Shown: piece by piece, positions 25,283 through 57,342 of the stretch
How positions within the stretch are numbered: position 1 is the stretch's first letter
Layout: every line of letters starts with the position of its first letter
DNA from: Fidelibacterota bacterium
Lineage (GTDB): Bacteria; Fidelibacterota; Marinisomatia; Marinisomatales; S15-B10
Reading direction: 5' to 3'
DNA: 64,000 bases
Assembly (NCBI GenBank): GCA_046861655.1
Contig: JBHIAI010000002.1
Span: 1-64,000, forward strand
Notes under the pieces: model-generated
The model's database searches: none
The model's input: the letters and a program-made list of their open reading frames with translations, nothing else
Told to the model about the DNA's origin: nothing
Translations under genes and position numbers: made by a program

Positions 25283-25354
25283 AGAAATCCGGGAAACGTA
25301 CACCTGCAGGCCGTAAACGTTAACCCTCGCCCTGGGAAAGTTACAACGGAAAAA

Positions 25355-37986: not shown

Positions 37987-38095
37987 TATCTGGCTCCAAC
38001 GGTGGGGCCATCATCTGGCCCTGGCTTCTGCACTGGTTCATGGTGCGGGGGCTCGATGTTTTCGTTCCGGTGATTCCCTGAGAAAGGAGGCGGCT

Positions 38096-39079: not shown

Positions 39080-39416
39080 GAAACCAGACTCCCCTGTTAT
39101 CACTTGCCCGTCCTGCGCAGATACTCACAGACGGTCCGGTGCACCCACCGTGTGCCATTGTGGTCATCCCCTTGAGGTGAGGCTCACCTGGGAGGGCGAC
39201 CCTCCCGCCCGGAAATCTGTCGATTCCGGTTTTTCTTCCCTCTGGCGGTACCGGTCCGTCTTGCCCCCTCTTGATAAACAGGGGATCTCCTCCACGGCCC
39301 GGGTGCCTGTGTGCCCCAGGTCACGTCAGGGCAGGCCGCACTGTTTGTACTTTGATGTTCACCGGAGTTGGGGTAAACTTGAATTGCTTGCGACCAAAGC
39401 GTCTTTTCCACTTTGA
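39066..39416 (+). pseudogene. N-terminal remnant of a threonine synthase-like gene
   Basis: CPSC...CHCGHPLEV...SSLWRYRSVLP zinc-ribbon/N-terminal motif with no PLP catalytic domain following. Confidence 0.55.
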
Positions 39417-39434
39417 ATCCCTTTGAGGTCAACT

Positions 39435-42259: not shown

Positions 42260-45051
42260 TGGAGATTTCCGTGGGATCATTTTTCGCCAATGGGGTTGCC
42301 AGAAGGGCAGGATGGATCGCGGCGTTCGTGATTTTCAGGACTCTTGGGGCCTTTCAGGCCGGGGCTATCACTCACTATCCTGTCCCTCAGCATACAGCCG
42401 ATAGACCCCTGGAGATTAAGGCTACAGTTTCCATGGCGACAGAGGTGGACAGGATGGATCTCTTCTACCGCCGGGCGGACGAAGATGGATTCATTGAGAT
42501 AGAAATGGATGTCGTCCCCGACGGATGGCAGGGTCAAATCCCCCTCGGTTATCTGACGGAGGAGGGGATCGAGTACTATATATCGGCCTCCCTGGAGGAT
42601 GGTACTGTAGTGACGTTCCCTGCGCAGGATCCCGTGGGGAGTCCCCAAACAGTGAAGATTGTCATGCCTGAAGCGTCTCAGCCGGAAATGGCGCGAAGAG
42701 AAACCATCGGTGAGGAAGCCATCCTCATTTTCAGTCCCGAGCCGGGATCCAGGGTGCCCACGGATGCCGTGCTCGTTTCGGTATCCCTTTTCCATGTGGA
42801 TTCGGTGGATGTTTCATCCGTACGGCTGGCAGTGGACGGTCAGGACGTGACGTCCCGGGCATCGGTTGGGACTGACCTGGTTGTCTACGAACCCGTGTTG
42901 ATGCCGCCGGGTTCTCACCGGGTACGTTTGACTGTGAAGACACTGGACGGTCGGGCCGTGGAGCCGAAATCGTGGTCATTCGACGTAACGGGCAAACTGG
43001 AGAAGGAAGTGGAGAGGGCTCTGACCTACGGGGGAAGGATCAACAGTGGGTATTCCCTGGATGCCATCGAGGGCCAGAGCCTGTCGATTGGGTTGACATC
43101 GGCTTCGGTGACCGGGAAGTGGCGGGGTTTAGACTTTAAGACCGATCTGAAGTTTACCACGGAGGAGGACCCCTTCAAGCAGCCCAGAAACCGGTACCAG
43201 TTCAAGGTGGATGCAGGACGGTATTTCAGTCTGAATCTGGGGGATTTCAACAGCAGGCTGTCGAGATTCACCCTGGATGGGAAGCGGGTCCGGGGTCTGG
43301 AGGCAAACCTGAAACTGGGTTGGGTGAATTTTCACCTGGTGAGAGGTGAGCTGGACCGTGTCATTCAGGGACGCCTGGGGGTGAATCAATCCCTGTTTCT
43401 TGAGAGTGTTGAGGCGACACAGAATGAACAGGATTCCACGAAGACCGACATCATCTACCGGTTGAATCGAAAGGGCTTCACCTTTCGCAAGAACATCTCC
43501 GCCGCCCGGTTGAGCTTTGGAAAAGGGAGCCGGTTTCAACTGGGGTTTAACTGGCTTAAGGCCAAGGACGACATCGGTTCCGTTCAGCAGGCTCTCGATA
43601 AGGCTCTTATCGATGTGGACCGGGATTCTTCTGGTTCAATTCCCCTGGAGATCGCCGTAGGGCAGTACGAATACGGGGAATTGAGAAGTGAGATCGACAA
43701 GAGAGGAAACTACCGGCTGGTCCTGCCCGAAACAGATTGGGAGGGGGACGCTCCTCAGGATAATATCGTTCTGGGATCAGACATTCGCTTTTTCCTGGAT
43801 CGAAAAAGGATAGGGTTTGAGGCCGGTTGGGCCTTCAGCATACTGAATAAGGACATCTGGGACGGTCCCTTCAGTCTCGCCGGCCTGGATACGCTCATGG
43901 ACGATGAGCTGGATGGCAGAGCGGGCGATATTGACATCTCGGGTTTTCCTGATCCTTCCGAATATGAGGACATTTTTGTTATCAATGAAAACATTGTGCC
44001 CCTTGTGCCCATAGACCCTGACTCCGCCCTGCTGGCGGATGATCCCCTGAAGGCGATCCTTAATATGCCTTCCCTCGCCTATTACCTTAAGGCTTCCGCC
44101 CGCTACCTTGGCAACCAGTTCAATTTCCAGTACATCAAGGTGGGGCCTGAATTCAATTCCCTGGGGAATCCCTACATTCAGGAGAATAACAGGGAATACT
44201 CCGTATCCGACCGGGTGGGGCTGTTTCGGAACAGATTCCTGGTACACGTAATCTACAAGCATCAAGACGATGACATTCTGAGAACGGTGGAGAATGTGAC
44301 CACCACCGAGACTTTCAGGACCAACCTGGGGCTCTACCCCGGGGGCGGCCTGCCCACCGTCACATTCAGTTTCCGCAATCAGGACAGGGATAACGGAAAA
44401 ACCACGCTTGATACGGTGACTGTGGACACGGCAAACGGCAGAATCGACCTGGAGGACCTGCGGGACTTCACCCGGACTACCCACACCACCGTGGGCGTGA
44501 ACCATCGCCTGGGGGCGTTGGGGATGGAGCACAATGTCTCGGTAAACTATGTTCAGCTTAAGCGTGCCGACCAGTATTACGAGGATGAGGACCGTCCCCT
44601 CCCACCCTTTTTCGAAGTGGTCGGCGGAGACAGTGTATTTGTCGATTCATCCTTCGTCTCTCCCAGTCTGAGTTCCCAGGTGACCAACGTAGCCCTGGTC
44701 ACCGACTACCCCTTTGGCCTGAGAACCACCCTTACCGTGTCCATCAACAAAAGCACCTTCGGGGAAGAAGGTAGTGAGTTATACGATTACGGAGACCAGG
44801 ACATCACGGGATTTACTCTTAAAGGGGACTATCGTATGTTGGACGGCCGCCTGGGACTTCGGGGTGGCGTGGAGATTACGAGTGGCTCGGGTATGGAGGA
44901 GTTTCGCCGTCTGGGGTTCGGAGCCGGATTCGGTTACAGAATCACCGATCTTCTCCGGTTCCGCTTTGACGGGAAACTCCGCTCCAAGAGCACCAACGGG
45001 GAGACAAAATCCAGCACCCTTCTTCGGGCCTCTTTGAATTATTCCTTCTAA
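42259..45051 (+). CDS. Large outer-membrane protein (N-terminal Ig-like domains plus C-terminal beta-barrel)
   Basis: ITHYPV...GIEYYI and SVRLAVDGQDVT...PGSHRV Ig-like domains; LTLDGKRVRG-type barrel strands; ends ASLNYSF. Confidence 0.7.
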   Translation: MEISVGSFFANGVARRAGWIAAFVIFRTLGAFQAGAITHYPVPQHTADRPLEIKATVSMATEVDRMDLFYRRADEDGFIEIEMDVVPDGWQGQIPLGYLTEEGIEYYISASLEDGTVVTFPAQDPVGSPQTVKIVMPEASQPEMARRETIGEEAILIFSPEPGSRVPTDAVLVSVSLFHVDSVDVSSVRLAVDGQDVTSRASVGTDLVVYEPVLMPPGSHRVRLTVKTLDGRAVEPKSWSFDVTGKLEKEVERALTYGGRINSGYSLDAIEGQSLSIGLTSASVTGKWRGLDFKTDLKFTTEEDPFKQPRNRYQFKVDAGRYFSLNLGDFNSRLSRFTLDGKRVRGLEANLKLGWVNFHLVRGELDRVIQGRLGVNQSLFLESVEATQNEQDSTKTDIIYRLNRKGFTFRKNISAARLSFGKGSRFQLGFNWLKAKDDIGSVQQALDKALIDVDRDSSGSIPLEIAVGQYEYGELRSEIDKRGNYRLVLPETDWEGDAPQDNIVLGSDIRFFLDRKRIGFEAGWAFSILNKDIWDGPFSLAGLDTLMDDELDGRAGDIDISGFPDPSEYEDIFVINENIVPLVPIDPDSALLADDPLKAILNMPSLAYYLKASARYLGNQFNFQYIKVGPEFNSLGNPYIQENNREYSVSDRVGLFRNRFLVHVIYKHQDDDILRTVENVTTTETFRTNLGLYPGGGLPTVTFSFRNQDRDNGKTTLDTVTVDTANGRIDLEDLRDFTRTTHTTVGVNHRLGALGMEHNVSVNYVQLKRADQYYEDEDRPLPPFFEVVGGDSVFVDSSFVSPSLSSQVTNVALVTDYPFGLRTTLTVSINKSTFGEEGSELYDYGDQDITGFTLKGDYRMLDGRLGLRGGVEITSGSGMEEFRRLGFGAGFGYRITDLLRFRFDGKLRSKSTNGETKSSTLLRASLNYSF

Positions 45052-45270
45052 ACGTTAGACGTTCAACGTTAGGCGTCTTCCGCAGTACGGTCTACGCATT
45101 ACGCCTGACGGCTCATTTCAAAATGATAATTGAAAATGGTAAATGCAGGAGTGAAGAAACCTGTGATATTGAATGATTCTACATTTTGTACTTTCCATTT
45201 TGCATTCTTCATTGTTACGGTTCAGGTCCATCACGTCCTCAAATAATCCATAGTCAATTCTCTGTTTCTA
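45051..45270. repeat. Intergenic element with 7-nt periodic degenerate repeats and an imperfect inverted repeat
   Basis: AACGTTAG/ACGTTCA/ACGTTAG, TACGCAT/TACGCCT, AAATGAT-AATTGAA-AATGGTA-AATGCAG pairing with TTTTGTA-CTTTCCA-TTTTGCA-TTCTTCA. Confidence 0.5.
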
Positions 45271-45277
45271 AGCCGGC

Positions 45278-46210
45278 CTATCCCTCGAAAAGGAACAGGT
45301 CCGTATTGTCGCGGAAGGTGGAGTACAAAGCCTCCATGGAATCGATGACGAAGTAGCGATCCTGGATATCGCTGTAGTCAAACCGGGTAAGGACCACCTC
45401 CCCCACATCGAAGGGAAGGAACCTGGACCGGTTGGATTCGCCCGTGGCACAGGCGACCACGTTCATGACCTCATCATACGACGAGATGATCCCTGACCCA
45501 TAAATCTCATAATCAATGTTATTGGGGCTTTTCCGGATCTCATCGGTATGGTTCTGTTTTTTCATGACGCCGAATTCGTAGCTCCACCAGGCGAAATTTT
45601 GGAGGCGCTTCAGGTTGTGGGCAATCAGCTCGGGACCCATGCCCCGTTCATCGGTAATGAGTGCATAGCCCAGCTGGCCGATTTCCGCCAGAAAATCACC
45701 GTACTCCCTGTTGGTGAGAAAAGGAGAATGGCCCCGGATATCGTGAAAAATATCGGGTTCAGGCGTGTATTCGTCTGTGTTGCGAATGTCCTGTCCTGAG
45801 TATTTCTGCCGGAATCGCCCGGATTGACGAATGATGTCCGTAACGGGAAACTTCCGCTGACTGTTCAAGAGGAAGAAGAGATACTCATTGAGGAATCCGG
45901 CCACCGGTGTGAGCATCCAGCCGCTGGCCTGTTCCAGCACAGGAGTCAGGGTCTCGAAATTTGGCCATTCGTTCCTGGAGAGCCCCAGGGCTCTCAACCC
46001 CTGGAGGTATTCCTTCGATGCGTATTGATCAAGGGGATCCTCGAGACGATTGAACAGCCGTCGCCAGATCTCCCGTTCTTCATCACTGATAGCGCCGTAG
46101 TTCTGTTTTATGAGGTAGGGATCATTCTCCGTGAAAATCTTGATCCCTCCCACTGCGTGGGGTTTTACGTTCCTAAAAAGATGGTCGTATTTGGTGTGCA
46201 CCTCCAGCAT
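45278..46210 (-). CDS. phhA: Aromatic amino-acid hydroxylase (phenylalanine 4-monooxygenase family)
   Basis: YTPEPDIFHDIRGH (two Fe-binding His), WWSYEFG (Glu), IYGSGIISS, IQDRYFVIDS. Confidence 0.88.
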   Translation of the reverse strand: MLEVHTKYDHLFRNVKPHAVGGIKIFTENDPYLIKQNYGAISDEEREIWRRLFNRLEDPLDQYASKEYLQGLRALGLSRNEWPNFETLTPVLEQASGWMLTPVAGFLNEYLFFLLNSQRKFPVTDIIRQSGRFRQKYSGQDIRNTDEYTPEPDIFHDIRGHSPFLTNREYGDFLAEIGQLGYALITDERGMGPELIAHNLKRLQNFAWWSYEFGVMKKQNHTDEIRKSPNNIDYEIYGSGIISSYDEVMNVVACATGESNRSRFLPFDVGEVVLTRFDYSDIQDRYFVIDSMEALYSTFRDNTDLFLFEG

Positions 46211-46306
46211 GCACGGGAATTTACAACACAAATGATTTTTGTAAACCCCTTTATGGGGACCTTCCAGACGTCAGCTCCTGCCTCCGGCAGTGCAAAACCT
46301 TTTTTC

Positions 46307-46335
46307 TTGACATTTATTGGAAACGGGTTTACAAT
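46307..46335 (+). promoter_or_regulatory. Sigma70-type promoter of the motor-like operon
   Basis: TTGACA-17 nt-TACAAT near-consensus, then GAGG RBS before GTG at 46390. Confidence 0.7.
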
Positions 46336-46389
46336 TGTGGGAGCTCGATTGGTTTCCTAATCGTTTCGGGTTAAATCCGAGGTAATGGC

Positions 46390-47511
46390 GTGAATAAGTT
46401 TACTCAGTCTATCTGTACCTTTCTCGTAGTCTGCTCATTTGTCGCAACCGGGTATGCCGCTGACACGTACCGGATACAGGGGGTGATCCTCGACAGTGGT
46501 GGCGACAAGGTGGGCGGTGCACAGGTGGTTCTTTTAGACGCGGACGGTAACGAGGCAGACCAGACCTCCTCTTCAAAAGGCTTCCTGGGAAAAGGGAAGT
46601 TCGAGTTCGACGATCTCAATCCGGGCCGGTACACGGTGAAGGCGACGGCAGGGGAGGCAGGTTCGGCCTCCCTCGAAGTGGTGGTGGCCGAGGAAGACCG
46701 GGAAATTGAATTGACCCTGGCCCCTGTGGGGAAAGGTGAAGAAAACGGCGGTCAGGAAGAAGGTGAAAGAATTCCCTCGGGGCGGGATGAATATGTCCTG
46801 AGCGAAATCAGTTTCGAACTGAAAAAACTAGGGGCTGAACTGGATCATCTTGGGAGCCAGATCAGGGATCTGCAAGCGAAGAGTGAGATGTGGACCAACC
46901 CCCTGTCCATCTACTCCAAGGAGATCATCCTGGAAAACGGCAGCACCGTTTTCGGGAAGGTCGTGTATCAAGATGAAGATATTCTGAAAGTACAGACCCT
47001 GGTGGGAAATCTGGTTATCGACCGATCCCAGGTGGTTCGCATAGTGGAGAATGTTCAGGCGGAGGAAGAACCTGAATACGTTCCCGAGCAGATCCGGGAG
47101 ACCTACAGTCCACCCCCCATGCCCAGGCTCGCCGAACCGAAGTACGTCGCCGTGACTCCTTCGGAGCGAATTCCCTCGGAGGTACGGGCGGCCAACGTGG
47201 TGCTGGTGGGTAACATTGCGGAGAATAAGGACAGGTCCGGAAACATCACCTTTCAGGGACAGCTCAAGAACCTTGGCGGCCGGCGGGCCGACTTTGTGAA
47301 GGTCAACTTTGTTTTCCGCAAGAACTGGAGCGGGGAGACCAAGACTCTCACCACCTTTGCCAAGGGATCTTACCACACCTTTGATTCGGGCATTACCACC
47401 GACTCATCGTTGCTCCCCGGCGCCAGTGCCGCCTTCGAACTGGTGGTTCCTGCTGATTTTGGATCCTTCATCGGGTATTCCCCCACCATCGATTGGGAAG
47501 AGTACGAGTGA
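46390..47511 (+). CDS. Secreted multidomain protein (carboxypeptidase-regulatory-like domain, coiled coil, small beta domain, FxLYD-like Ig domain)
   Basis: Signal peptide; IQGVILDSGG...FDDLNPGRYTVKA; heptad stretch; GQLKNLGGRRADFVKVNFVF. Confidence 0.65.
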   Translation: MNKFTQSICTFLVVCSFVATGYAADTYRIQGVILDSGGDKVGGAQVVLLDADGNEADQTSSSKGFLGKGKFEFDDLNPGRYTVKATAGEAGSASLEVVVAEEDREIELTLAPVGKGEENGGQEEGERIPSGRDEYVLSEISFELKKLGAELDHLGSQIRDLQAKSEMWTNPLSIYSKEIILENGSTVFGKVVYQDEDILKVQTLVGNLVIDRSQVVRIVENVQAEEEPEYVPEQIRETYSPPPMPRLAEPKYVAVTPSERIPSEVRAANVVLVGNIAENKDRSGNITFQGQLKNLGGRRADFVKVNFVFRKNWSGETKTLTTFAKGSYHTFDSGITTDSSLLPGASAAFELVVPADFGSFIGYSPTIDWEEYE

Positions 47512-48407
47512 ACCGTCCGGTAGCGATTCCGTTGCTCTCAGGGGCTCTTCTTATTCTATGTACCTTGACCGGGGTACTAACGGGTCAGTCCTCGTCCGGA
47601 TCTCCCGGGCCCTTGGGGGATGACATCTTCTTCCTGGACCTGGGCATCGTGATTGAACCGGGCACCGGCAAGGAAGAGGTTAACCGTCTGGTGAAGGCAC
47701 CTCCGGAGAAGGTGAAATTCTTCCTGGACAAGGAACCCAGTGGTTCCGTCTACATGGCGTCAACCCGGGAGTTGCATGAGACGCTCGCCCGGATCAGCGA
47801 CAGGATTGATGCCCTGGAGGAGTCCTTTCACCGGGAGATTACTGCTGTCCGGGTGGAGAATGGCGAGTTGCGGGAAATGGTGGCCGACCTCCTGGCCAGG
47901 GAACCCATTCTTCCCTCCCAACCTGCGGTGACCCCGGTTCCATCTTTGTCCACCCCACCCGTTTCCCGGGAGGAACAACCCGAACCGGAGGTGGAAGAAA
48001 AAGTCGTCGTTACCGCCCCTGCGGCGGACGGCTCTTTCAGCAAGATGAGATACATGAATGCCGTTTTCGCTTACCAGAGGGAGGACTACCGGGTCGCCCT
48101 GGATCATTTTTCCCGGTTGTACCTGAAGGAGCAGGATCACACCACCAGAGGAAACGTGTTGTACTGGATTGCCGATTGCTACTATCAACTGGGAGATTAC
48201 CGGAGAGCTCTCGACACCCTGGAGGAGATCAGATCCCTGGGCCGGTCGGACAAGCAGGATGACGCCCTGGTGTTGACCGGGCTGGCCTATCGCCAGATGG
48301 GTCGGGAAAACGAGGCCCTTGAGGCCTTTGATCATATCCTTCAGTACTATCCCGACAGCGAATACTTCAGGCTGGCCCGGATGGAGTTGCGGAAATCTCA
48401 GGAGTAG
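47508..48407 (+). CDS. Periplasmic coiled-coil plus TPR protein (CpoB/YbgF-like architecture)
   Basis: Signal peptide, coiled coil, Pro-rich linker, TPRs (NVLYWIADCYY, DDALVLTG, YPDSEY). Confidence 0.75.
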   Translation: MNRPVAIPLLSGALLILCTLTGVLTGQSSSGSPGPLGDDIFFLDLGIVIEPGTGKEEVNRLVKAPPEKVKFFLDKEPSGSVYMASTRELHETLARISDRIDALEESFHREITAVRVENGELREMVADLLAREPILPSQPAVTPVPSLSTPPVSREEQPEPEVEEKVVVTAPAADGSFSKMRYMNAVFAYQREDYRVALDHFSRLYLKEQDHTTRGNVLYWIADCYYQLGDYRRALDTLEEIRSLGRSDKQDDALVLTGLAYRQMGRENEALEAFDHILQYYPDSEYFRLARMELRKSQE

Positions 48408-48412
48408 TCCGT

Positions 48413-49780
48413 ATGGGTAAAACCCACAGATCCGGCGTGTTATTCCTGTTGATCTTGATGTCTGCGCCCCTGTTGGGCGTGACCCGGGTGGCGTTTACCC
48501 GTCCCGGACCCATGGTGAGAATTCCCATGACCCGCACCGTGCGGTCTCCCTATCTTTTCAGTGCAGGTTTCGGATCGGAGATTCACAATTTTTCCCCTTT
48601 CAATGTAGCCAAGGGTGTTTATTTCACCATGGACATATCCGAGAGATTCACCCTGGGATTCTCTTCAGGTCAGGGGGCGGACACCACCGCTCTGGAGAAC
48701 ATTCTGGAGTCCACCTATGCCCCCCCTGTTGAGTTCGGATTTCATTTCCAGCAGCGCGTTTACACCCGGGGAGACGTTTCTTTTAGTCTGGGCGTTCACG
48801 ATGTGGTCTTTGAGAACGCAGATGACGGCTTAAGTCTCGACCCCAAGCAACTGTCTTTTTTCGGGATTATTGGTAGTGAGAAGTCCTTCGGTGATTATGA
48901 TCTGCACACGTTTATGGGGTTTGGCACGGGAGGATTTGCCCAGACCCTCGCCACGGGTCAACCCGGAACCGCCGGGGAAGACACCGCCGGAACCCGGACC
49001 GGCGTATTCGCCGGGTTCTTGTTGAACACACCGTTCCTGCCCAAATGGGGTGGACTCGATTTTGTGGGTGAATTCGACGGCTCAGGCATCAATGTGGGAC
49101 TCCGCATCCCCCTTACCTCGGATTATCGCCTGAGTCTAGGATTCACCCACATAGAAAATTTGCCCGCTTTTTCCGAAGAACCTTATGGTCCCGATCACCC
49201 GGGTCTTGCGGTGGGGCTCGACATGTCGGTTCCGAGGGGACCGGTGGTCAGGGAGGTACCGGGTCTGCCCCGGCCCGGCGAGAGGGGCCCCGCCCCCGTT
49301 CCTGAAGCCGCCGTTCGTGACACAATCCTCTTGGCGGCCGATCTGGCAATGGCCAGACTCCGGGATTCTTTGCGGGTGGAAAAACACTACGTACGGAACC
49401 TGGCGACTCAGGTGGCCCGATTGGAGCAGAAAAGCCTCACCCTTGAAGATTCGGTGCGGGCGTTGAGGCTTGATCGGGCGGTGAGTCAAAAGAACATCAA
49501 CCTGGCCATGCAGCACCTGTCCCTTTCCCAGCGTTACGCCTTTGCGGGAGATTACCGGGCGGCTCTTCAGGAGGTGGAGACTGCCCTGGATTTGAACCCT
49601 AATCTGGCACTGGCTTACGCCCGGCGAGGGGCCATATACTATAAGTTGGGAGATATTCAACGGGCGACCATCAACTGGAATCTGGCTCTCCAGATGGATC
49701 CGGAATACGATGACGTGAGAAACATCTTGAAGGCTCTTCACGAGAACCGTTTGAAGGCCATCAGTTTCAACAAGGAGTAA
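48413..49780 (+). CDS. Putative outer-membrane beta-barrel fused to coiled coil and TPR
   Basis: Signal peptide, beta strands (FVGEFDGSGINVGLRIP), coiled coil, TPRs (ALDLNPNLALAYARRG, ALQMDPEY). Confidence 0.7.
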   Translation: MGKTHRSGVLFLLILMSAPLLGVTRVAFTRPGPMVRIPMTRTVRSPYLFSAGFGSEIHNFSPFNVAKGVYFTMDISERFTLGFSSGQGADTTALENILESTYAPPVEFGFHFQQRVYTRGDVSFSLGVHDVVFENADDGLSLDPKQLSFFGIIGSEKSFGDYDLHTFMGFGTGGFAQTLATGQPGTAGEDTAGTRTGVFAGFLLNTPFLPKWGGLDFVGEFDGSGINVGLRIPLTSDYRLSLGFTHIENLPAFSEEPYGPDHPGLAVGLDMSVPRGPVVREVPGLPRPGERGPAPVPEAAVRDTILLAADLAMARLRDSLRVEKHYVRNLATQVARLEQKSLTLEDSVRALRLDRAVSQKNINLAMQHLSLSQRYAFAGDYRAALQEVETALDLNPNLALAYARRGAIYYKLGDIQRATINWNLALQMDPEYDDVRNILKALHENRLKAISFNKE

Positions 49781-49788
49781 CGTTCCGT

Positions 49789-50574
49789 ATGGACATAGCC
49801 ACGCTGGTAGGCATCGTGATCGGTTTAGGTGCTATTGGAGGGGGAATCTTCGTGGCCGCTGCTGCCGCCGGTGCGGGAGCTGAAGGATTCGTTTCCCTGC
49901 CGAGTTTCCTGATCGTGTTCGGAGGCATGGTGGCCTCAGTCTCGGTGGCCTTTCCCCTGCCGGAAGTAATGAAACTGGGGGCGGCCATGGGGGCGGTCTT
50001 CAAGGGAGGTTTGATCAGGCTGGGCGAGCTGGTGGATGATGCGGTGGAACTGGCAGGAGTGGCAAGGAAGGGTGCAGCCGAACTGGAAAAGGGTGTGGGA
50101 GACATCCGAAATCCTTTCTTCAGGGATGGCGTCCAGATGGTGGTGGACGGCTATTCCGAAGAGGAATTGGTTGAGATTCTGGAAACCCGTATCAGCTACC
50201 GGGAAGTCCGGGAACGGTCCCAGGCAAGTCTGTTTCAGACCATGGGGACCATGGCGCCAGCGTGGGGGATGATTGGGACGCTCATCGGACTGGTTATCAT
50301 GCTCATGGGATTCGGTGGAGGGGGAGGAACAGAAGCTCTCGGTTCAGGCATGTCCGCCGCCCTGATTACCACCTTCTACGGAGCTGTGTTTGCCAATCTG
50401 TTCTTTCTCCCCATGGCGGCCAAGCTCAACTCGCGAATCGCTCACACCAGCACCATGCAGGCCATGCTGGTGGAGGCCGCCCGTTTGATTCATCAGAAAA
50501 AACACCCCCTTATCGTCCGGGAGAGACTCAACTCCTTCATTCCTCCCAAGGAATGGAAAAGGGAAGGGGAGTAA
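49789..50574 (+). CDS. motA: Flagellar-type stator protein MotA/PomA
   Basis: MDIATLVG, SFLIVFGG, ARKG...LE, FFRDGVQMVVDG, APAWGMIGTLIGL, ALITTFYG...ANLFFLP; AAGGAG RBS. Confidence 0.93.
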   Translation: MDIATLVGIVIGLGAIGGGIFVAAAAAGAGAEGFVSLPSFLIVFGGMVASVSVAFPLPEVMKLGAAMGAVFKGGLIRLGELVDDAVELAGVARKGAAELEKGVGDIRNPFFRDGVQMVVDGYSEEELVEILETRISYREVRERSQASLFQTMGTMAPAWGMIGTLIGLVIMLMGFGGGGGTEALGSGMSAALITTFYGAVFANLFFLPMAAKLNSRIAHTSTMQAMLVEAARLIHQKKHPLIVRERLNSFIPPKEWKREGE

Positions 50575-50577
50575 CCT

Positions 50578-51330
50578 GTGCCGAGAAAGCCTCAACCTCC
50601 TCCTCCTGAACCGGGTCTCCCCAATTGGTTTGCCACTTTTGCCGATATGATGACGCTTCTCCTGGCCTTTTTCGTTCTTCTGGCCGCCATTTCCACCATC
50701 GATCCCGTCAAACTTCAGGCCATGGCCGATTCCATGAAAAAATCAGTGGGAAAGAAAATAGAGATGGAGGGAGCCATGAGCCTGGCCGATATCGAGAAGG
50801 CGGTTAAGGTGATGGTGTCGCAGGAACAGATGGAGGAAGCTGTGGAAGTGACCACCAGCACCAAGGGTGTCACCATCGGCATTTCATCGGACATCAGTTT
50901 CGAATCGGGTTCAGCGGACCTGAAACCCGGGATCATGCCCATTCTGGAAAAGATTGTTCCCACGATCGAGAATTCGTATTTCCAGGTGGCTGTTGAGGGC
51001 CATACTGACAACGTGCCCATTTCGGACAATATCCGGGTGCGGTTTCCCTCTAACTGGGAACTGTCCGGCGCCCGGGCGGCTTCGGTGGTCCGGGAATTGA
51101 TCGATATGGGCGTAGAACCCACACGTCTGCAGTCGGTGGGATATGCCGAATACATTCCGAGGGATCGGCCCACGGACAGGCTCATCACGGATGAGCTTAT
51201 CCTCGAGCTGAATGCAACCCCCGATCTTCAGGCCCGTAATCGCCGGGTGGAGATCACCTTTCTGGCTCCCCGGGGGGGGCCGGTGGGTAGCCACAGGGAG
51301 GAGTCGGAGCCGGAGGAGGGGGGAGAGTAA
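50578..51330 (+). CDS. motB: Flagellar-type stator protein MotB (OmpA-like peptidoglycan-binding domain)
   Basis: WFATFADMMTLLLAFFV with conserved Asp, EGHTDN, SNWELSGARA, NRRVEI. Confidence 0.93.
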   Translation: MPRKPQPPPPEPGLPNWFATFADMMTLLLAFFVLLAAISTIDPVKLQAMADSMKKSVGKKIEMEGAMSLADIEKAVKVMVSQEQMEEAVEVTTSTKGVTIGISSDISFESGSADLKPGIMPILEKIVPTIENSYFQVAVEGHTDNVPISDNIRVRFPSNWELSGARAASVVRELIDMGVEPTRLQSVGYAEYIPRDRPTDRLITDELILELNATPDLQARNRRVEITFLAPRGGPVGSHREESEPEEGGE

Positions 51331-51357
51331 GACCTGGAGCCTAAACAAGGAGAGGTC

Positions 51358-52935
51358 ATGAAACACAGGTTGAGGGGTATCCTTGGCGGGGGAGCCGTAG
51401 TTGCCGTTTTGGCTGTCCTCGCTGTGGGGCAGGAGTCCACGTTTCTGGCTCAGAAGCTCATGCTGGAAAACGATTTAAGGAAGCGTATTACGGGAGCTCT
51501 TGAAAAAATCCTGGACGACCACCGTTACGTCCTGGATGTGACCGTGGATTTGAAGTTCACGCCCGCCGTTCGCGAGGAAGTGACATTCGCACCCGAGGAG
51601 GTCCCGGCCCAAGTAAAACCAGCTCTCAGAGAAAAGATGGGTGCTCGGGAACAACCAGAAGAGGTGGCGGGCCGGAAGAAGTCCCGGGTGACGGGACTTC
51701 CCATTCCGGGATTTGATTTTCAGGTGGAAGAGGAACCTGCGCCAGGGCTGGAGGAACCGTCTGCTGTTGAAACCGAAAAGGAGGATGAATCCGTCCAGGA
51801 GGGACCGGCCAGAAAAGGGGCCAGAGTGATCCGCCAGTCCTATACGGACATCAGTACATCCATGCCGGTGATCAGGAAGATGGAAATCAGCTGCATTCTC
51901 CCCGAGGGGTCCTCTCCTGAGCTCATCGAGAACGTTCGACAGATTATCATGGTGGCTTCCCATTTCGACCGGAGTCGCGGGGATGTCCTGAGTGTTATGA
52001 CGGCGTCGTTCAAGGAGAGAAAGGACGAGAGGACGGCGGAGGCCATCATCTTAAGAAGTATTGCGGAAAAAATTGATCAGCTTGAGGAGAGACAGGCGGA
52101 GACCGACGCTCAGGTAGTCGAGGACTGGCGCAGGGAGTTGGAACAGTGGAAACAGGAGGAATCCCGGCGCCAGGAGGAAGAACGGTCCGTCTGGCGAACC
52201 GAACTCGAAAGGCTGGAGAATGACCGCCTTCGTCGGGAATTTGAACGGGAAAAAAGAGCCATTCTGGAGCGTGATTCCCTGGAACTGGCAGCCTTAACTC
52301 AGGAAATCGATGAGTTAAGAGCCATGCTGACCACCGCCGATCTGACGCCTCAAGAGCAACAGACGGCTCAGGATCAGGTGGCGATCAAGGAGAGGAAGCG
52401 GGCTCAGATCGACTCTGTGATTGATGAGAAACTGGCTTTTCTTGAGGAGACCCGCCAGGAAATGAGGGAACTGGACAGGGCAGGAGTGAGCAATCTCCCC
52501 ATTTATCTGATGAGTGCTATTTCGCTTCTGGCCGTAGCTGCCCTGGCGGCGGTGATCATTTTCAACGGCCGGAGTCGTCCCCGTTATATGGTACCCCCTC
52601 CATGGCTCATGAGGCCGCCCAGCAAAAAAAAAGTGACTAAGGAGAAAAAAGAGGATGAGGACAAGGGCGAGGGACCCAAGGCGGCGCCGCCTCCCCCACC
52701 TCCGCCCACGCCCCCGGAACCGGAAGAAGATCCCAGTGTCCTCCAGTCAGAAATCAAATCTATGCGGCAGTCCATTGTGTCCATGAGCGTGGGACAGCCC
52801 GAGACGGCCACCGATATCGTTAAAGAGTGGTTGGAAGAAGAAGCGCCCGCACCTCCCGAGGAAGCGCCGGCGGCCGTAACTCCCCCTTCCCCCGAAGAAA
52901 AGGATGAGGGGAAAAAGAAAAAGAAGAAAAAGTAG
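51358..52935 (+). CDS. FliF-like ring protein (RBM3/FliF_C only, long coiled coil, TM, FliG-binding tail)
   Basis: LENDLRKRITGALEKIL...VTVDLKF and IRKMEIS...FDRSRGDVLSVMTASF RBM3 halves; TM at about aa 380-404; PETATDIVKEWL tail. Confidence 0.75.
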   Translation: MKHRLRGILGGGAVVAVLAVLAVGQESTFLAQKLMLENDLRKRITGALEKILDDHRYVLDVTVDLKFTPAVREEVTFAPEEVPAQVKPALREKMGAREQPEEVAGRKKSRVTGLPIPGFDFQVEEEPAPGLEEPSAVETEKEDESVQEGPARKGARVIRQSYTDISTSMPVIRKMEISCILPEGSSPELIENVRQIIMVASHFDRSRGDVLSVMTASFKERKDERTAEAIILRSIAEKIDQLEERQAETDAQVVEDWRRELEQWKQEESRRQEEERSVWRTELERLENDRLRREFEREKRAILERDSLELAALTQEIDELRAMLTTADLTPQEQQTAQDQVAIKERKRAQIDSVIDEKLAFLEETRQEMRELDRAGVSNLPIYLMSAISLLAVAALAAVIIFNGRSRPRYMVPPPWLMRPPSKKKVTKEKKEDEDKGEGPKAAPPPPPPPTPPEPEEDPSVLQSEIKSMRQSIVSMSVGQPETATDIVKEWLEEEAPAPPEEAPAAVTPPSPEEKDEGKKKKKKK

Positions 52936-52944
52936 AGTCAACGC

Positions 52945-53874
52945 ATGATTACCGATTACAATCGTTTGTCCGGCCTGGATAAGGTGGCCATCCTTTTCTC
53001 TGTACTGGGAGAAGGTCTGGCGGTGAAAGTTGTGAAGGGACTGGAAGAGGCGGACCTGCGGCGGATCCGGGCTCGCGTCCGTGAAATGGAGGCAGTGTCT
53101 ACGTCGGTAAAGAAGAAGGTCGTGGACCAATTCTACCTGGCGTTCGTATCCAGGAAACTGGAGGATGAGACCGGCGGAGACACCAAACGGCCCTTTGCCT
53201 TCTTGGAAAACTTAGCCGACGAACAGCTGGGAGCCCTCCTGGAAGTGGAAGAACCGAGAATCATTGCCATGGCTCTGGCTCAGGTGCCTACCGACAGGCA
53301 GGTTTTTGTGATGGCCCGCCTGACACCGGAAACGAAGGGGCAGGTGCTTATGGAAATGGGCAACCTGGGGAATGTTCCCCTGGAGGCCGTGGTCACTGTG
53401 GCTACGGATCTGGAGAAAAAATCCCACTTCCTTCCCCGTGGTGTGGACTTCTCCCGGGGAGGGGGTAAGAACGTGGCTGATATTCTTGAGAAACTTTCCC
53501 CTGAGGAAGGAGAAAAGTTTCTGGAAGCCATCGCCCGGGAGTCTCCTGACCTGGCCAAAGAGATCAAGAGATATCACCTTACCTTCGACGACGTGTTCAG
53601 ATTTCCCGACAGCCTCTTGAGGGACCTCATGAATTCGGTGGAGCTGGATACAGTGGCCTTGGCCATGAAGGGTCAATCCGAGGAGATTGTTGACCGGGTT
53701 ATCAGTAACCTTCCCCAGAAGAAACAGGCCATGTACGAGCCGGTGGAACGAGCGGTTCCCAAAAGGGAGGTGGATAACGCCAGAAAAGCCATTGTGGATG
53801 CTGCCCGGCAGATGGAAAAGGACGGACGCATTAATCTGGAAGATATTCTGGGTGGCAGCGAAATGGTGGAATAG
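52945..53874 (+). CDS. fliG: Divergent flagellar rotor protein FliG
   Basis: LSGLDKVAIL, PFAFL, EEPRIIAMAL, GGGKNVADIL, LTFDDV, ALAMKG, EVDNARKAIV...EKDGRI. Confidence 0.88.
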   Translation: MITDYNRLSGLDKVAILFSVLGEGLAVKVVKGLEEADLRRIRARVREMEAVSTSVKKKVVDQFYLAFVSRKLEDETGGDTKRPFAFLENLADEQLGALLEVEEPRIIAMALAQVPTDRQVFVMARLTPETKGQVLMEMGNLGNVPLEAVVTVATDLEKKSHFLPRGVDFSRGGGKNVADILEKLSPEEGEKFLEAIARESPDLAKEIKRYHLTFDDVFRFPDSLLRDLMNSVELDTVALAMKGQSEEIVDRVISNLPQKKQAMYEPVERAVPKREVDNARKAIVDAARQMEKDGRINLEDILGGSEMVE

Positions 53875-54714
53875 GTGTCTTTGTTCCGTCCTCGGTCAAG
53901 AAGCCTTCCCTGGGAAAGGACGGGAAGGCTTTTTCATATCTTTCCTGTGAGATTGGGAGCCCTGGGACTGATGGCAGTGGTGTCCACGGGTGTCTCCGGA
54001 AAACCTTCCCCCGTTACTCCGGGGGGAGAGGCCGGTTGGGAACGATCCCTCGCAGCCTCGTTTTCCACCCAGGGCGGAAACACCAATCTGTCCAGTTACG
54101 CCCTGGCCTTTACGGTGGATTATACGGGGGATCTCCGTGTAGCAGGCGTGGATTTCAACGACAGTGAGTTCCACGCGTTCGTCCGTCATAAACGGGGGAA
54201 ACTGGACAGGTCTTTATATGAAGACGATGGGAGTGCGTCCTTGCTGTTTGACATCATGGCCCATGGCAAATTCTCCCCTTTTTTCCTTTCTTACTGGGCC
54301 TACGATTCCACCACGGGCCTCGATGAACGAATTCAGCTCGGAGCTGGAGGCAAGTACACCGTCGCCGGGGGATTCTCCCTGAGCCTTGCCTATCTGTTTG
54401 AGGTGGAGGGCTATAAGGGTGAGTCCAGAACCCGGCAGTATCGATTGTCGTTTCGACCCAAGTACAAGAGGACCTTCTCCAGCGGTGTGTCCCTTAACAC
54501 CCTGGTATTCATCCAGCCCCTGGTCCTGGATCCCGGCAGATTTCTCATTGACAGCCATGTGAGTGTGACCGTTCCCACCCCGGTGAAGATACTGGCAGAT
54601 GACAAGAAACTCGAGGTGACTCTGAGGTGGAGGGAACAATTCAACTCCCGTCCCCCCGGTTCGGTCCAGAAGCGGGACAGCGATCTTGACCTTGGCCTGA
54701 TGATTTCGTTTTAG
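53875..54714 (+). CDS. DUF481-like outer-membrane beta-barrel (start uncertain)
   Basis: TQGGNTN, RIQLGAGGKY, NTLVFIQP, FNSRPP...KRD, C-terminal LGLMISF. Confidence 0.65.
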   Translation: MSLFRPRSRSLPWERTGRLFHIFPVRLGALGLMAVVSTGVSGKPSPVTPGGEAGWERSLAASFSTQGGNTNLSSYALAFTVDYTGDLRVAGVDFNDSEFHAFVRHKRGKLDRSLYEDDGSASLLFDIMAHGKFSPFFLSYWAYDSTTGLDERIQLGAGGKYTVAGGFSLSLAYLFEVEGYKGESRTRQYRLSFRPKYKRTFSSGVSLNTLVFIQPLVLDPGRFLIDSHVSVTVPTPVKILADDKKLEVTLRWREQFNSRPPGSVQKRDSDLDLGLMISF

Positions 54715-54732
54715 ATCACGGGGTAGAGTAGT

Positions 54733-56151
54733 ATGGAAAAGGAAATCCACGAGTTGAATCTGGAGGGAACCACCTTCCGGACCATCATTGAACCGTTCAG
54801 AATCAAGTCTGTGGAACCCATCCGGATCACCACCCGGGATGAGAGGGAAACGATTCTTCAACAGGCCTTCTACAATGTGTTTCTCATCCGGTCCAGGGAC
54901 GTTATCATCGATCTTCTCACCGACAGCGGTACCAACGCCATGAGTTCGGACCAGTGGAGCGGAATAATGCGAGGCGATGAGACCTACGCCGGTAGTGAGA
55001 GCTATGGCCGTTTTGAGAATACGGTCAAGGATATCTTCGGATTCAAGCATGTCATTCCGACCCACCAGGGAAGAGCCGCCGAGAGGATTCTGTTTACGGT
55101 CATGTGCCGGCCGGGAGATGTGGTTCCCAACAACACCCACTTCGACACCACCCGGGCCAACGTAGAATTCCGGGGAGCGGTGGCGAAAGATCTCCCCATT
55201 GAAGAAGGGCGAGATCCCCAGAATCCCCATCCGTTCAAGGGGAACATGGACCTGGCAAAACTGGAGGCACTGATCACCCGGGAGGGGAAGGAAAAGATTC
55301 CCCTTTGCATGGTGACGATCACCAACAACTCCGGGGGAGGCCAGCCGGTGTCCATGGAGAACCTACGGGCCACGAAGACCCTGGTATCCCGGTATGGGAT
55401 TCCCCTCTACCTGGACGCATGCCGGTTCGCTGAGAATGCTTATTTGATTAAGTTAAGGGAAAAAGGGTACGAGAATAAGCCGGTCAGGGAGATCGTGGCG
55501 GAAATGATGAGCTACGCCGACGGGTGCACCATGAGTGCCAAAAAGGACGGCCTGGCCAACATCGGAGGATTTCTCTGCACCAACGATGATCTTCTGGCCC
55601 GGCAGGAAAGGGACCTTCTGATTCTCACTGAAGGCTTTCCCACCTACGGGGGCATGGCGGGAAGGGACCTGGAGGCCATCGCCATCGGTCTGGAAGAGGC
55701 GATTCACGAAGATTATCTCATCTACCGGATTGCCGAAACCCAGTACTTGGGGAAACACCTGGAGGAAATAGGGTTTCCCATTGTGCAACCCCCGGGAGGT
55801 CACGCCGTATACGTGGATGCTAACGCCACGTTACCCCATATGGATCCTCTGGAATACCCCGGTCAGGCTCTGACGGCTGAACTTTACCTTGCAGGGGGGA
55901 TCAGGGCGGTGGAAATTGGGTCCGTCATGTTCGGGAAGGAAGACCCGGAGACGGGAAAGGAACAACCGGCGGCCATGGAGTTGGTTCGACTTGCCATTCC
56001 CCGGCGGGTGTACACGCAGAGTCATATCGATTATGTCATTGAGGTGTGCAAGAGAGTCTGGAAACGCCGGGAATCTCTCAAAGGGTTTCGAATCACTGAA
56101 CAGGCCCCGTTTCTTCGTCACTTTACCGCTAAGTTTGAACCCCTTGATTAG
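54733..56151 (+). CDS. tnaA: Tryptophanase
   Basis: EPFRIKSVE, DLLTDSGT, HQGRAAE, SAKKD and LRHFTA (tryptophanase-type; tyrosine phenol-lyase has SGKKD and LRFFTA). Confidence 0.88.
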   Translation: MEKEIHELNLEGTTFRTIIEPFRIKSVEPIRITTRDERETILQQAFYNVFLIRSRDVIIDLLTDSGTNAMSSDQWSGIMRGDETYAGSESYGRFENTVKDIFGFKHVIPTHQGRAAERILFTVMCRPGDVVPNNTHFDTTRANVEFRGAVAKDLPIEEGRDPQNPHPFKGNMDLAKLEALITREGKEKIPLCMVTITNNSGGGQPVSMENLRATKTLVSRYGIPLYLDACRFAENAYLIKLREKGYENKPVREIVAEMMSYADGCTMSAKKDGLANIGGFLCTNDDLLARQERDLLILTEGFPTYGGMAGRDLEAIAIGLEEAIHEDYLIYRIAETQYLGKHLEEIGFPIVQPPGGHAVYVDANATLPHMDPLEYPGQALTAELYLAGGIRAVEIGSVMFGKEDPETGKEQPAAMELVRLAIPRRVYTQSHIDYVIEVCKRVWKRRESLKGFRITEQAPFLRHFTAKFEPLD

Positions 56152-56157
56152 CCGGCG

Positions 56158-57342
56158 ATGCCAGGTACCAGAAAAATCCATCATCTCCTGATCGCGGGTG
56201 CCTTGATTCTGACCGCGTGCACCGAGTCCCCGAGAAAGTTTCACGACCGGGCCTATGTTGCCGACACCCACAATGATGTCCTTCTGCGGGTCATGAGGGG
56301 GGAGGACATTGCCGTGAGAACTTCATCGGGGCATTCCGACGTTCCGAGGTTGGAAGAGGGGGGCGTCGACATGCAGGTGTTTTCGGTCTGGGTGGACCCG
56401 GCCACCTATGGGTCTGGCAGCTCTTTTCAAAGGGCGAACGAGATGATCGATTCTCTGGTCAGCCTTGCGGAAAGAATTCCCCAGCGGCTGGAGATTGCCC
56501 GCTCCTACGACGATCTGGAACGGCTCGAGCGGGAAGGAAAACTGGCGGCTGTCATTGGCGTTGAAGGGGGACACGCCATCGAAAACAGCCTGGAAAAGCT
56601 AAAGGTTCTTCACCAGCGGGGAATGCGCTATCTTACCGTCACCTGGAATAACTCCCTGGATTGGGCCAGCTCAGCCAAGGATGAGACAAAGGGAGATATG
56701 GGACCCTTCGCCGGACTCAATAAGTTCGGCAGGGAGGTGATCCGTTCCTGCAATGACCTGGGGGTGATGGTGGATGTGTCACACGCGGGGGAACAGACCT
56801 TCTGGGATATCATAGGGAGCACCACCCGTCCTGTTATCGCCTCCCACTCTTCCGTGTATGCCATCTGTCCCCATTTTCGCAACCTCAAAGATGACCAGCT
56901 TCAGGCCATCAAGGATAACGGCGGTGTGGTGTTTGTTAATTTTTTCCCGGGTTATCTGGACAGCACCTTCGAAGGCCGGTACCTCCAGGTGGAAAAAGCC
57001 CATCAGGAGGAACTGGATTCCCTGGCGGGGATCTATTCACGGGACTCTGAGGATTTCTGGTATGGACGGATTCAGATCCTTCGGGATGATCTTTCCACCG
57101 TGGCACCCCCCGTGGACCTCCTCATCGATCACATTGACTATATCGCAAACTTGATCGGTGTTGACCATGTTGGACTGGGATCGGATTTTGATGGGGTCTC
57201 GGTCCTGCCCCGGGGAATGGAAGACGCCACCCGGGTTCCCCTGATTACGGAAAAACTCCTCCAACGGGGTTACTCCAGGAGGGATGTAAGGAAGATCCTG
57301 GGGGAGAATTTCAAGCGTGTTTTCCGGGAGACCGTAGGGTGA
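56158..57342 (+). CDS. Membrane dipeptidase (M19) lipoprotein
   Basis: Lipobox LTAC, DTHND, GVEGGH, VDVSH, ASHS, GSDFDG, ILGENF. Confidence 0.92.
   Translation: MPGTRKIHHLLIAGALILTACTESPRKFHDRAYVADTHNDVLLRVMRGEDIAVRTSSGHSDVPRLEEGGVDMQVFSVWVDPATYGSGSSFQRANEMIDSLVSLAERIPQRLEIARSYDDLERLEREGKLAAVIGVEGGHAIENSLEKLKVLHQRGMRYLTVTWNNSLDWASSAKDETKGDMGPFAGLNKFGREVIRSCNDLGVMVDVSHAGEQTFWDIIGSTTRPVIASHSSVYAICPHFRNLKDDQLQAIKDNGGVVFVNFFPGYLDSTFEGRYLQVEKAHQEELDSLAGIYSRDSEDFWYGRIQILRDDLSTVAPPVDLLIDHIDYIANLIGVDHVGLGSDFDGVSVLPRGMEDATRVPLITEKLLQRGYSRRDVRKILGENFKRVFRETVG

Follow-up and report, generated by a model that had tools for sequence, protein, structure and literature searches.

Why should a bacterium in whose genome no flagellum can be found keep genes for the rotor and stator of a flagellar motor? 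This question is raised by the first 64,000 nucleotides of contig JBHIAI010000002.1 (assembly GCA_046861655.1, forward strand), a stretch called the window in the following, from a member of the Fidelibacterota, the phylum also known as Marinimicrobia, SAR406 or Marine Group A. A tightly packed gene cluster in the window encodes MotA-type and MotB-type stator subunits, a cut-down FliF-like protein and a FliG paralogue together with three envelope proteins. To our knowledge, FliG and FliF are regarded as flagellum-specific. The sequence comparisons described here lead us to read the cluster as a functional stand-alone, non-flagellar machine of MotAB, FliG and the FliF-like protein, with a probability of roughly 0.8. 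The gene content given in a preliminary description of this DNA, namely three secreted or outer-membrane proteins, motA, motB, a FliF-like gene, fliG and a DUF481 gene, is borne out by Pfam searches and by AlphaFold2 (AF2) models compared with Foldseek. Seven of these genes, g1 to g7, form the conserved unit; the DUF481 gene (g8) is treated with the neighbouring genes further below.

46390..47511, + strand: g1, secreted protein with a signal peptide, a prealbumin-like CarboxypepD_reg domain (residues 29-109), a short coil and a conserved C-terminal part (about 128-373)
47493..48407, + strand: g2, periplasmic coiled-coil protein with C-terminal TPR (Pfam TPR families), of CpoB/YbgF-like layout
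48413..49780, + strand: g3, outer-membrane β-barrel (about 47-274) with a long helix (304-378) and C-terminal TPR (381-454), from Pfam TPR matches, the AF2 model and Foldseek
49789..50574, + strand: g4, MotA/PomA-type stator A subunit (PF01618 MotA_ExbB, 98.2 bits)
50578..51330, + strand: g5, MotB/PomB-type stator B subunit with plug, ion-binding Asp and OmpA-like peptidoglycan-binding domain (PF13677, PF00691)
51358..52935, + strand: g6, cut-down FliF-like protein (Pfam YscJ_FliF_C, PF08345, only)
52945..53874, + strand: g7, FliG paralogue with N, M and C domains (FliG_N, FliG_M, FliG_C)

The stator subunits can be compared with solved structures. In the PDB, g4 aligns end to end with Paenibacillus MotA1 (1.8e-40) and PomA (1.3e-30); its nearest NCBIfam models are MotP and PomA, the best being MotP with 185.4 bits, under the equivalog cut-off of 394. 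Both families of g5 lie over their cut-offs (MotB_plug PF13677, 65.8 bits; OmpA PF00691, 53.3 bits), its PDB matches include MotB (3e-28) and PomB (1.6e-25), and its best NCBIfam match is MotD, with 157 bits under a cut-off of 283. Residues were counted over 35 sequences, the window's own and 34 orthologs. MotA R93, E100, P157, P208, T164, T194 and T195 are invariant in all 35, as is MotB D23, which upholds the earlier statement that the MotB aspartate and the MotA motifs are intact. R93 and E100 make up the Arg/Glu pair on the cytoplasmic side, and the two prolines belong to TM3 and TM4 of the four-helix subunit; we take R93, E100, P157 and P208 to be the counterparts of E. coli R90, E98, P173 and P222. 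The PomA-like threonines T164, T194 and T195 also occur in a Clostridium MotA chain and do not decide between H+ and Na+ as the driving ion. Three genes of the MotA/ExbB family were counted in the genome. Besides the cluster MotA, there is an ExbB that neighbours TonB in the window and a MotA-like gene that forms an orphan pair with a MotB-like one. The orphan pair lies on contig 192 (4266-6582, - strand; MotA_ExbB, then MotB_plug with OmpA), is followed by a DUF4352 protein and stands beside dnaE; its MotA groups with the flagellar MotAs of the phylum in the MotA tree.

The FliG paralogue g7 has all three domains over their Pfam cut-offs (FliG_N 60.7, FliG_M 53.2, FliG_C 89.7 bits) and finds T. 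maritima FliG as its best PDB match (1lkv, 1.1e-21), while its 115.4 bits to TIGR00207 lie under the equivalog cut-off of 226.7. In E. coli, MotA R90 and E98 form pairs with FliG D289 and R281 (PMC7564593). The torque helix of the cluster FliG keeps its charges, with K/R259, E/D265, E268 and K/R273 in 35/35 sequences and R274 in 33/35, and in distant cluster FliGs this helix, LPQRTQIILEDE...GPQPRR, is near canonical. Thus, torque residues are kept on both the stator side and the FliG side. The site for FliM is a different matter. We take the FliM-binding motif of FliG to be EHPQR, that is EHPQ together with R160 in T. maritima. Aligned to T. maritima FliG, the corresponding positions read E-E-P-R with a Glu in place of R160, and they are variable: E102 alone is near-invariant (34/35), P104 is found in 26/35, R105 in 25/35 and the R160-equivalent Glu in 26/35, and His is never the commonest residue. 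This loss of the motif is consistent with the missing FliM of the genome. The cluster copy is the only FliG_C in the genome apart from one sub-threshold match on contig 93 (4049-4222; 22.5 bits), which lies inside a 511-residue frame and may belong to an MgtE-type protein.

The FliF-like protein g6 matches PF08345 with 29.1 bits (cut-off 23.8), and YscJ_FliF (PF01514), which covers RBM1 and RBM2, is absent. An N-terminal hydrophobic segment is followed by an RBM3/β-collar-like domain (about 25-220), helices at 227-326 and 331-374, a transmembrane helix (380-406), a Pro-rich linker, a tail that resembles the FliG-docking end of FliF (459-495) and a poly-Lys end. Between the periplasmic domain and the transmembrane helix there is thus a helical stretch of about 100 to 145 residues. 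The AF2 model starts with a helix, then shows two long β hairpins (58-77 and 157-182) that flank an acidic, disordered insert, and further contains an α-β unit and two tail helices. All 18 Foldseek matches at E<=0.001 are FliF S-ring or RBM3 structures, the best being 8z5v_A (5.8e-7). The tail is conserved as SM.VG.P...A..I...W, with W491 in 35/35 and E465 in 34/35 sequences. When the tail was modelled together with FliG_N, a check suggested in the preliminary description, the complex scored 0.50 against 0.01 for the best of three controls, runs shared at least 92% of their contacts and the partner's predicted local distance difference test (pLDDT) value was at least 66. Of 157 solved complexes, 116 attain the mark applied, as do 2 of 215 mismatches; at 0.60 or under it is reached by only 18 of the 157 and by both mismatches. 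As a like complex has already been solved, the pass may reflect memory, and likeness is shown more than binding. The very C-terminus of g6 (window 52870-52935) carries 6-10 lysines (G-K-K-K-K-K-K-K), which are kept in all 14 aligned homologs and may bind the membrane or an acidic partner.

If these proteins were parts of a flagellum, other flagellar genes should be found in the genome. The assembly has 2.06 Mb in 198 contigs, with 92.8% completeness and 0.9% contamination. Profile searches over the whole genome gave no match for FHIPEP (FlhA), FliP, Flagellin_N, Flg_bb_rod, FliMN_C, YscJ_FliF (RBM1-2) or CheW, while control genomes gave matches in every one of these searches, and among the 50 open reading frames scanned in the window there is no flagellar or chemotaxis family besides those of the cluster. 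Both the earlier claim that the 64,000 nucleotides hold no other flagellar or chemotaxis gene and its extension to the genome are therefore supported; a flagellar set elsewhere, lacking only its own rotor and stator, was not found. The lack of an export gate, a rod and a cytoplasmic ring (C-ring) implies that the rotor is not a protein export channel. Another way to account for the cluster would be that it is what decay has left of a flagellum since lost, or that the metagenome-assembled genome is incomplete or contaminated and in truth has flagella. The arguments for this are the fragmentation and completeness of the assembly just given, the equivalog cut-offs missed by the motor proteins, and the presence of flagella elsewhere in the phylum, where FlhA is over its cut-off in 66/301 genomes. 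Yet the seven flagellar and chemotaxis families, which are unlinked, are all missing, contamination is low, and none of the seven other genomes that belong to the family of the window reaches the FlhA cut-off, one having a match of 20.6 bits, below it.

Decay is further contradicted by the conservation of the cluster. A FliG ortholog with 50-86% identity is present in 36/41 related genomes, the window's own counted. Thirty-four loci were fetched, 20 of them from the window's order (near) and 14 from other orders or classes of the phylum (distant). MotA, MotB, the FliF-like gene and FliG are present and collinear in 34/34 loci; g3 is also found in 34/34, one copy being cut by a contig end, g1 in 33/34, the exception being this same cut locus, and g2 in 31/34 (blastp, E<=1e-3). 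The reading frames of g1 to g7 are intact across the 34 loci. Compared with a genome of the same genus, the ratio of nonsynonymous to synonymous substitution rates (dN/dS) is 0.035 for MotA, 0.078 for FliG, 0.085 for g3, 0.092 for MotB, 0.10 for the FliF-like gene, 0.11 for g1 and 0.21 for g2, far from the value of 1 that would go with decay; the view that the cluster is not decaying, first based on its intact motifs, thus holds. Together with the invariant catalytic and torque residues, these observations leave the remnant or artefact as the least credible of the explanations weighed here. The eight-gene synteny expected in the preliminary description is confirmed for seven genes only. A DUF481 gene is found downstream of fliG in 4/20 near loci and 0/14 distant loci; the conserved unit therefore consists of g1 to g7.

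Across the phylum, a profile of the FliF-like protein matches 210/301 sampled genomes; there is no match in the streamlined family f12 (0/27), in f15 or in f16. The same profile, run over 185,579 species genomes, gave 147 loci. By their titles, the best 80 of these 147 comprise 50 from Marinimicrobia, Neomarinimicrobiota or Fidelibacterota, 27 without a named phylum and one each from TMED144, the 'FCB group' and 'SAR86'. The 'SAR86' locus lies on a 2.9-kb contig, and the genome concerned (G308) has cluster-type FliF-like and FliG genes on the short contigs 87, 88 and 110; its cluster contigs are probably misbinned Fidelibacterota DNA.

How the cluster relates to true flagella can be seen in relatives that have both. 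In three genomes of the same order (G020, G034 and G026), FlhA and flagellin are accompanied by a second FliG that is only 24-26% identical to the cluster FliG and by extra MotA genes in the flagellar region, and the full cluster is there as well. The canonical block of G020 runs fliF-fliG-fliH-fliI...flgE-motA-motB-fliM-fliN, and its flagellar FliF has PF01514 at 198.7 bits. Relatives that keep a complete flagellar set of their own beside the cluster imply that the cluster is a separate system and not the product of decay. Among the distant loci, 11 of the 14, all fully syntenic, come from FlhA-positive genomes. A cross-tabulation by hand of the 301 genomes gave 164 with the cluster and without FlhA, 46 with both, 20 with FlhA only and 71 with neither; the distribution of the cluster is therefore independent of flagella. 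In short, g1 to g7 are a unit that is conserved and under purifying selection in Fidelibacterota with or without flagella.

The 46 genomes with both markers could suggest that the cluster supplies spare or alternative rotor and stator parts to an ordinary flagellum, for example a second FliG/MotAB set for other conditions. Such a role finds its best example in the flagellated genome G029 (family f16), in which the FliF-like and FliG genes of the cluster are gone and a 29-residue g3 fragment is followed by a cluster-type MotA (70% identity by tblastn, 72% by blastp) and a MotB with 55% identity (L148, about 9645-11475). The sole other MotA-family gene found in G029 is an ExbB, and as this genome is 92% complete, flagellar motAB could be unassembled. 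The flagellum of G029 may have taken over the cluster stator; a cluster-type MotA as the only one besides ExbB means that a stator of this type may serve a flagellum. As a general explanation, however, spare parts are very unlikely. FlhA is lacking in the other 164 of the 210 marker-positive genomes, among them the window's, which is also without a match for FliP, flagellin, rod and FliM/N. In addition, the cluster FliG has lost its FliM-binding motif, the domains that encircle the export gate, RBM1 and RBM2, are missing from the FliF-like protein, and the partners g1 to g3 are conserved with the cluster even where flagella exist.

These three partners point to the cell envelope. The CarboxypepD_reg domain of g1 scores 40.3 bits in Pfam (cut-off 32.3); in distant loci g1 is alignable over residues 128-373 only, and its look-alikes with scores of at least 0.9 in the Atlas are all from Fidelibacterota clusters. 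The neighbours of g2, the fastest evolving of the seven genes, are motAB and the FliF-like and fliG genes, with no tol genes beside it. In the AF2 model of g3 (mean pLDDT 76), residues 47-274 form about 13 strands; a helix of 75 residues and three to four TPR pairs follow. Its Foldseek matches are the outer-membrane barrels OmpT, FapF, NanC and OmpG, a designed 12-strand barrel and, in addition, TPR arrays. Against models of GltC and GltE, g2 and g3 reach 17.6 and 21.4 bits, with cut-offs of 450 and 225, a weak likeness that concerns the TPR only. As leads only, Atlas look-alikes of g3 come from Margulisiibacteriota (0.97) and from YaiO-type barrel-TPR proteins (0.87). Weak matches to a Leptospira BatC TPR model are seen for both g2 and g3.

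Partners of this kind also lend themselves to the main rival explanation, a force transducer of the Ton or Tol type without a full rotating ring. Here, the stator would act on a few FliG and FliF-like units, the periplasmic helix of the FliF-like protein would work like TolA, TonB or GldM, and the energy would reach the barrel-TPR protein for uptake, secretion, or tethering or division of the outer membrane. The helical segment of about 145 residues that leads from the periplasmic domain of g6 to its transmembrane helix would suit such a transducer, as would the outer-membrane barrel of g3 with its periplasmic TPR and the OmpA-like domain of MotB, which resembles Pal-type anchors. The CpoB/YbgF-like g2 has TIGR02795 tol_pal_ybgF as its best NCBIfam match, and among the genome's three genes of the MotA/ExbB/TolQ family there is no obvious TolQ. 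On the other hand, Ton and Tol motors grip the transmembrane helix of their partner inside the membrane, whereas what is conserved in the cluster are the cytoplasmic charge pairs of MotA and FliG and the RBM3 ring-building domain, which are sensible only for a FliG array under the membrane. The YbgF match of g2, moreover, stays under its cut-off (46.4 bits against 90.1) and comes from the TPR repeats, and no search was made for TolB or Pal, so that their absence from the genome is not shown. We therefore consider a Ton- or Tol-like transducer unlikely.

For the stand-alone MotAB-FliG machine, a mechanism can be proposed along the lines of the flagellar motor, in which the FliF ring has about 33-34 subunits. 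The parts span the envelope: FliG is cytoplasmic, the inner membrane holds MotA, MotB and the FliF-like protein, the outer membrane holds g3, and the periplasm is the place of the OmpA domain of MotB, the proposed ring and stalk of the FliF-like protein, g1 and g2. MotA5B2 units, fixed to the peptidoglycan via the OmpA-like domain of MotB, would use the flow of H+ or Na+ to push the torque helix in the C-terminal domain of FliG. The FliG array would be kept in place beneath the inner membrane by the FliF-like protein, through its conserved C-terminal tail. The FliF-like protein itself could build an S-ring-like periplasmic assembly through its RBM3/β-collar domain, joined to the membrane by the helical stalk. 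Motion of the rotor would then pass through the transmembrane helix and the long stalk into the periplasm and on to g1, g2 and the barrel-TPR protein g3. The mechanism in this detailed form, with a ring that rotates and is coupled to the outer membrane, is tentative, and we give it somewhat less than even odds. The output is probably a process at the outer membrane or the cell surface, such as moving or turning a surface component, energising transport or maintaining the envelope. The surface motility, secretion, uptake and envelope remodelling named in the preliminary description are guesses.

To place the cluster among its relatives, FliG was searched exhaustively. At E<=0.001 there are 5049 representatives and at E<=1e-30 only 24, all of them of the cluster type and several fragmentary. 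The next-best matches are proteins of 570-790 residues whose sources are named as Saccharospirillaceae, Elusimicrobia and metagenomes. They consist of a signal or transmembrane segment, RBM3-like motifs (LPGLP, RGD..S), a transmembrane helix and the M and C domains of FliG, a layout that suggests natural fusions in which a short FliF is joined to FliG. Such a fusion was present in 6/400 sampled genomes of another class, and in 3/4 fetched loci a TPR protein and a MotA-MotB pair lie beside it. In metagenomes, an alignment of three fused proteins matched no relative, and one fused protein used singly gave a short, unrelated match and nothing else. A tree built from 108 FliG regions has 42 canonical rows, among them true FliF-FliG fusions and the phylum's four flagellar FliGs, which are split from the other 66 by a branch with 100% support in the Shimodaira-Hasegawa-like approximate likelihood ratio test (SH-aLRT). 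These 66 are two sister groups, the 32 cluster-type sequences (support 98) and 34 short-FliF-FliG fusions (91). The tree samples the top of one search and is rooted at the midpoint only. A separate clade, as first proposed for MotA and FliG, is thus found for FliG, whereas the cluster MotA stands next to the flagellar MotAs of the phylum. Similarly, the idea of a self-contained machine repurposed for a non-flagellar job survives as far as a separate, non-flagellar unit is concerned; the direction implied by 'repurposed' is not shown by an unrooted tree.

The fused cassettes, made up of a TPR protein, the fused rotor protein, MotA and MotB, resemble the cluster in this layout, in their FliG part and in the genes next to the rotor. 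The cluster rotor, by contrast, is split over two genes, its FliF-like part has a long helical insert, g1 is specific to Fidelibacterota, and the MotA subunits of the two do not group together. The likeness between g6 and the N-terminal half of the fusions consists of shared motifs and a layout read by eye, with no significant score: hhalign of the g6 profile against the N-terminal half of the fusion P0148 gave a probability of 1.6% (E 0.031). Likewise, when g3 was compared with the partner proteins from two of the fused cassettes, no similarity could be detected (hhalign, probability 0.3-0.4%), the comparison of a profile with a single sequence being a weak test. In one fused cassette of another class (L145, 10829-12580), the genes behind MotB encode a MoxR-type AAA ATPase and a DUF58 protein, as in Bat/aerotolerance-type operons. 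No description of the fused cassettes was found in the literature searched. A doubtful, wider proposal is that the seven-gene cluster and the fused cassettes together represent an old and widespread family of non-flagellar rotary motors with an RBM3-ring/FliG rotor, a MotAB stator and outer-membrane barrel/TPR partners. This family would stand beside the flagellar motor as its sister line and may be a relative, still living, of the rotor-stator module on which the flagellum was built. In SAR406 it would turn or drive an outer-membrane or surface structure, for instance for surface movement, rotary secretion or particle attachment. If this were true, it would amount to a new kind of bacterial motor output.

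Several observations weigh against the reading of the cluster as a functional stand-alone motor. The first group concerns the rotor. FliM and FliN, which buttress the FliG ring, were not found in the genome, and RBM1 and RBM2, which help to build the flagellar membrane-supramembrane ring (MS-ring), were found neither in g6 nor in the whole genome. The model of g6 is moderate (mean pLDDT 68.5, predicted template-modelling score 0.29, residues 80-155 disordered), the predicted complex of its tail with FliG_N argues for docking only weakly, and ring formation and rotation are what we infer from such comparisons. The FliG torque helix has lost four residues in the lineage of the window, and its second acidic position is Pro in 26/35 sequences. 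MotA, MotB, FliF and FliG alike miss their NCBIfam equivalog cut-offs. The MotA tree is unlike the FliG tree, as the cluster MotA adjoins the flagellar MotAs of the phylum (35-38% identity), outside of which the three MotAs from fused cassettes are placed; long branches were flagged in this tree. A second group concerns the role of the machine. The cluster was not found in 91/301 sampled genomes and is therefore dispensable. The one cultured species of the phylum, which may or may not carry the cluster, is reported as non-motile (PMC11652737); this argues against swimming-like motility, with little bearing on other outputs, and so weakens motility only.

A comparison with known systems shows where the cluster stands. 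With the core of the flagellar motor (FliF MS-ring, FliG ring, MotA5B2 or PomA5B2) it shares the charged pair and prolines of MotA, the Asp and plug of MotB, the N, M and C domains of FliG with the charged torque helix, the RBM3/collar fold of FliF and, possibly, a tail that would dock FliG. It differs in that its genome is without the export gate, rod, hook, filament, FliE, FliM/N and Che proteins. Its FliF is without RBM1 and RBM2 and carries about 145 additional residues of helix, its FliG lacks the EHPQR site and forms a clade of its own, and it has its own barrel-TPR, CpoB-like and prealbumin-like partners. The Tol-Pal system with CpoB/YbgF and the Ton system have in common with the cluster a stator of the MotA family, a periplasm-spanning helical protein, an OmpA-like peptidoglycan-binding domain, a CpoB-like coiled-coil/TPR protein and an outer-membrane partner. 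In contrast to them, the cluster uses a plug-bearing stator of the MotAB/PomAB type known from flagella, coupling would go through FliG, and g2 stays under the TIGR02795 cut-off. The Agl-Glt machinery of Myxococcus similarly couples a proton-driven stator to TPR lipoproteins and outer-membrane barrels, but AglRQS is TolQR-like and neither FliG nor FliF takes part. In GldLM of type IX secretion and gliding (see also PMC8986121 and PMC9389320), an ion-driven inner-membrane motor of the 5:2 type, a periplasm-spanning partner and an outer-membrane-associated assembly are again present. GldL and GldM belong to different families, that system is without FliG, FliF or a cytoplasmic rotor, and the cluster holds no component of type IX secretion.

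In the full-text literature searched (including PMC12505986, PMC8630151, PMC12199754, PMC13277936, PMC1586193 and PMC5596340), no description of a non-flagellar FliG/FliF/MotAB cassette was found; the supplements of PMC12505986 and PMC12199754 might list homologs. A text match to FliG in PMC8630151 was an artefact of its reference list ('time-of-flight') and was discarded. The building blocks of the cluster are known, which is not the case for their stand-alone use with outer-membrane partners of their own. FliG and FliF appear here as a conserved, selected unit with its own stator in a very abundant marine phylum that is mostly without flagella. Ion-driven motors of the envelope are few (flagellar, Ton, Tol, GldLM, Agl, Zorya), and the machine would be one more of them. 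Whether the flagellar motor had a modular origin would become testable, with two living rotor-stator systems that can be compared, sometimes in one cell. For ocean microbiology, it means that SAR406 contains a conserved envelope machine that calls for an explanation.

The organization of the locus agrees in part with what had been described, namely eight tightly spaced, co-oriented genes behind one promoter. Eight open reading frames, g1 to g8, are packed into 46390-54714 on the + strand with junctions of -19, 5, 8, 3, 27, 9 and 0 nt, and a promoter candidate precedes them. The run does not end with the eighth gene, as it continues into a lyase and an M19 dipeptidase gene. The features around the seven-gene unit are the following.

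46307..46335, + strand: sigma-70-like promoter candidate, TTGACA-17-TACAAT with 11/12 matches, a consensus match only
53875..54714, + strand: g8, DUF481 outer-membrane protein (PF04338), a lineage-specific neighbour
54733-56151, + strand: beta-eliminating lyase, after an 18-nt gap behind g8, in the same tight co-directional run
56158-57342, + strand: M19 dipeptidase, after a 6-nt gap behind the lyase, in the same co-directional run

The promoter candidate is the top-scoring site in 45000-56500 and sits in the 158-nt gap between a divergent hydroxylase gene (45278-46231, - strand) and g1. Seven promoter-like sites were observed over the region against 5.2 +/- 1.9 in shuffles, so their number is not significant. 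The DUF481 domain of g8 scores 25.3 bits (cut-off 21.1). A beta-eliminating lyase gene adjoins the cluster in 9/20 near loci and 0/14 distant loci, and synteny rules out the DUF481, lyase and M19 dipeptidase genes as members of the unit.

Upstream of the cluster, a co-directional block (37682-45051) encodes a DUF1028 and TPR protein, two proteins without an assigned family, a FecR-domain protein and a secreted protein of 930 residues with a weak Big_7 match. Part of the gene for the 930-residue protein is also found upstream of the cluster in 2/20 near loci (L013 and L025). Farther away, at 10869-12953 on the + strand of the window, lie the genes for ExbB (10869-11507) and a TonB_C protein (12309-12953). 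Between these two, where ExbD would be expected, there is no gene with an assigned family, and the - strand reading frames listed there are probably shadows. Finally, two neighbouring sets of succinate dehydrogenase/fumarate reductase flavoprotein and iron-sulfur subunits occupy 18930-25303, one on the + strand (18930-22012) and the other on the - strand (22733-25303).

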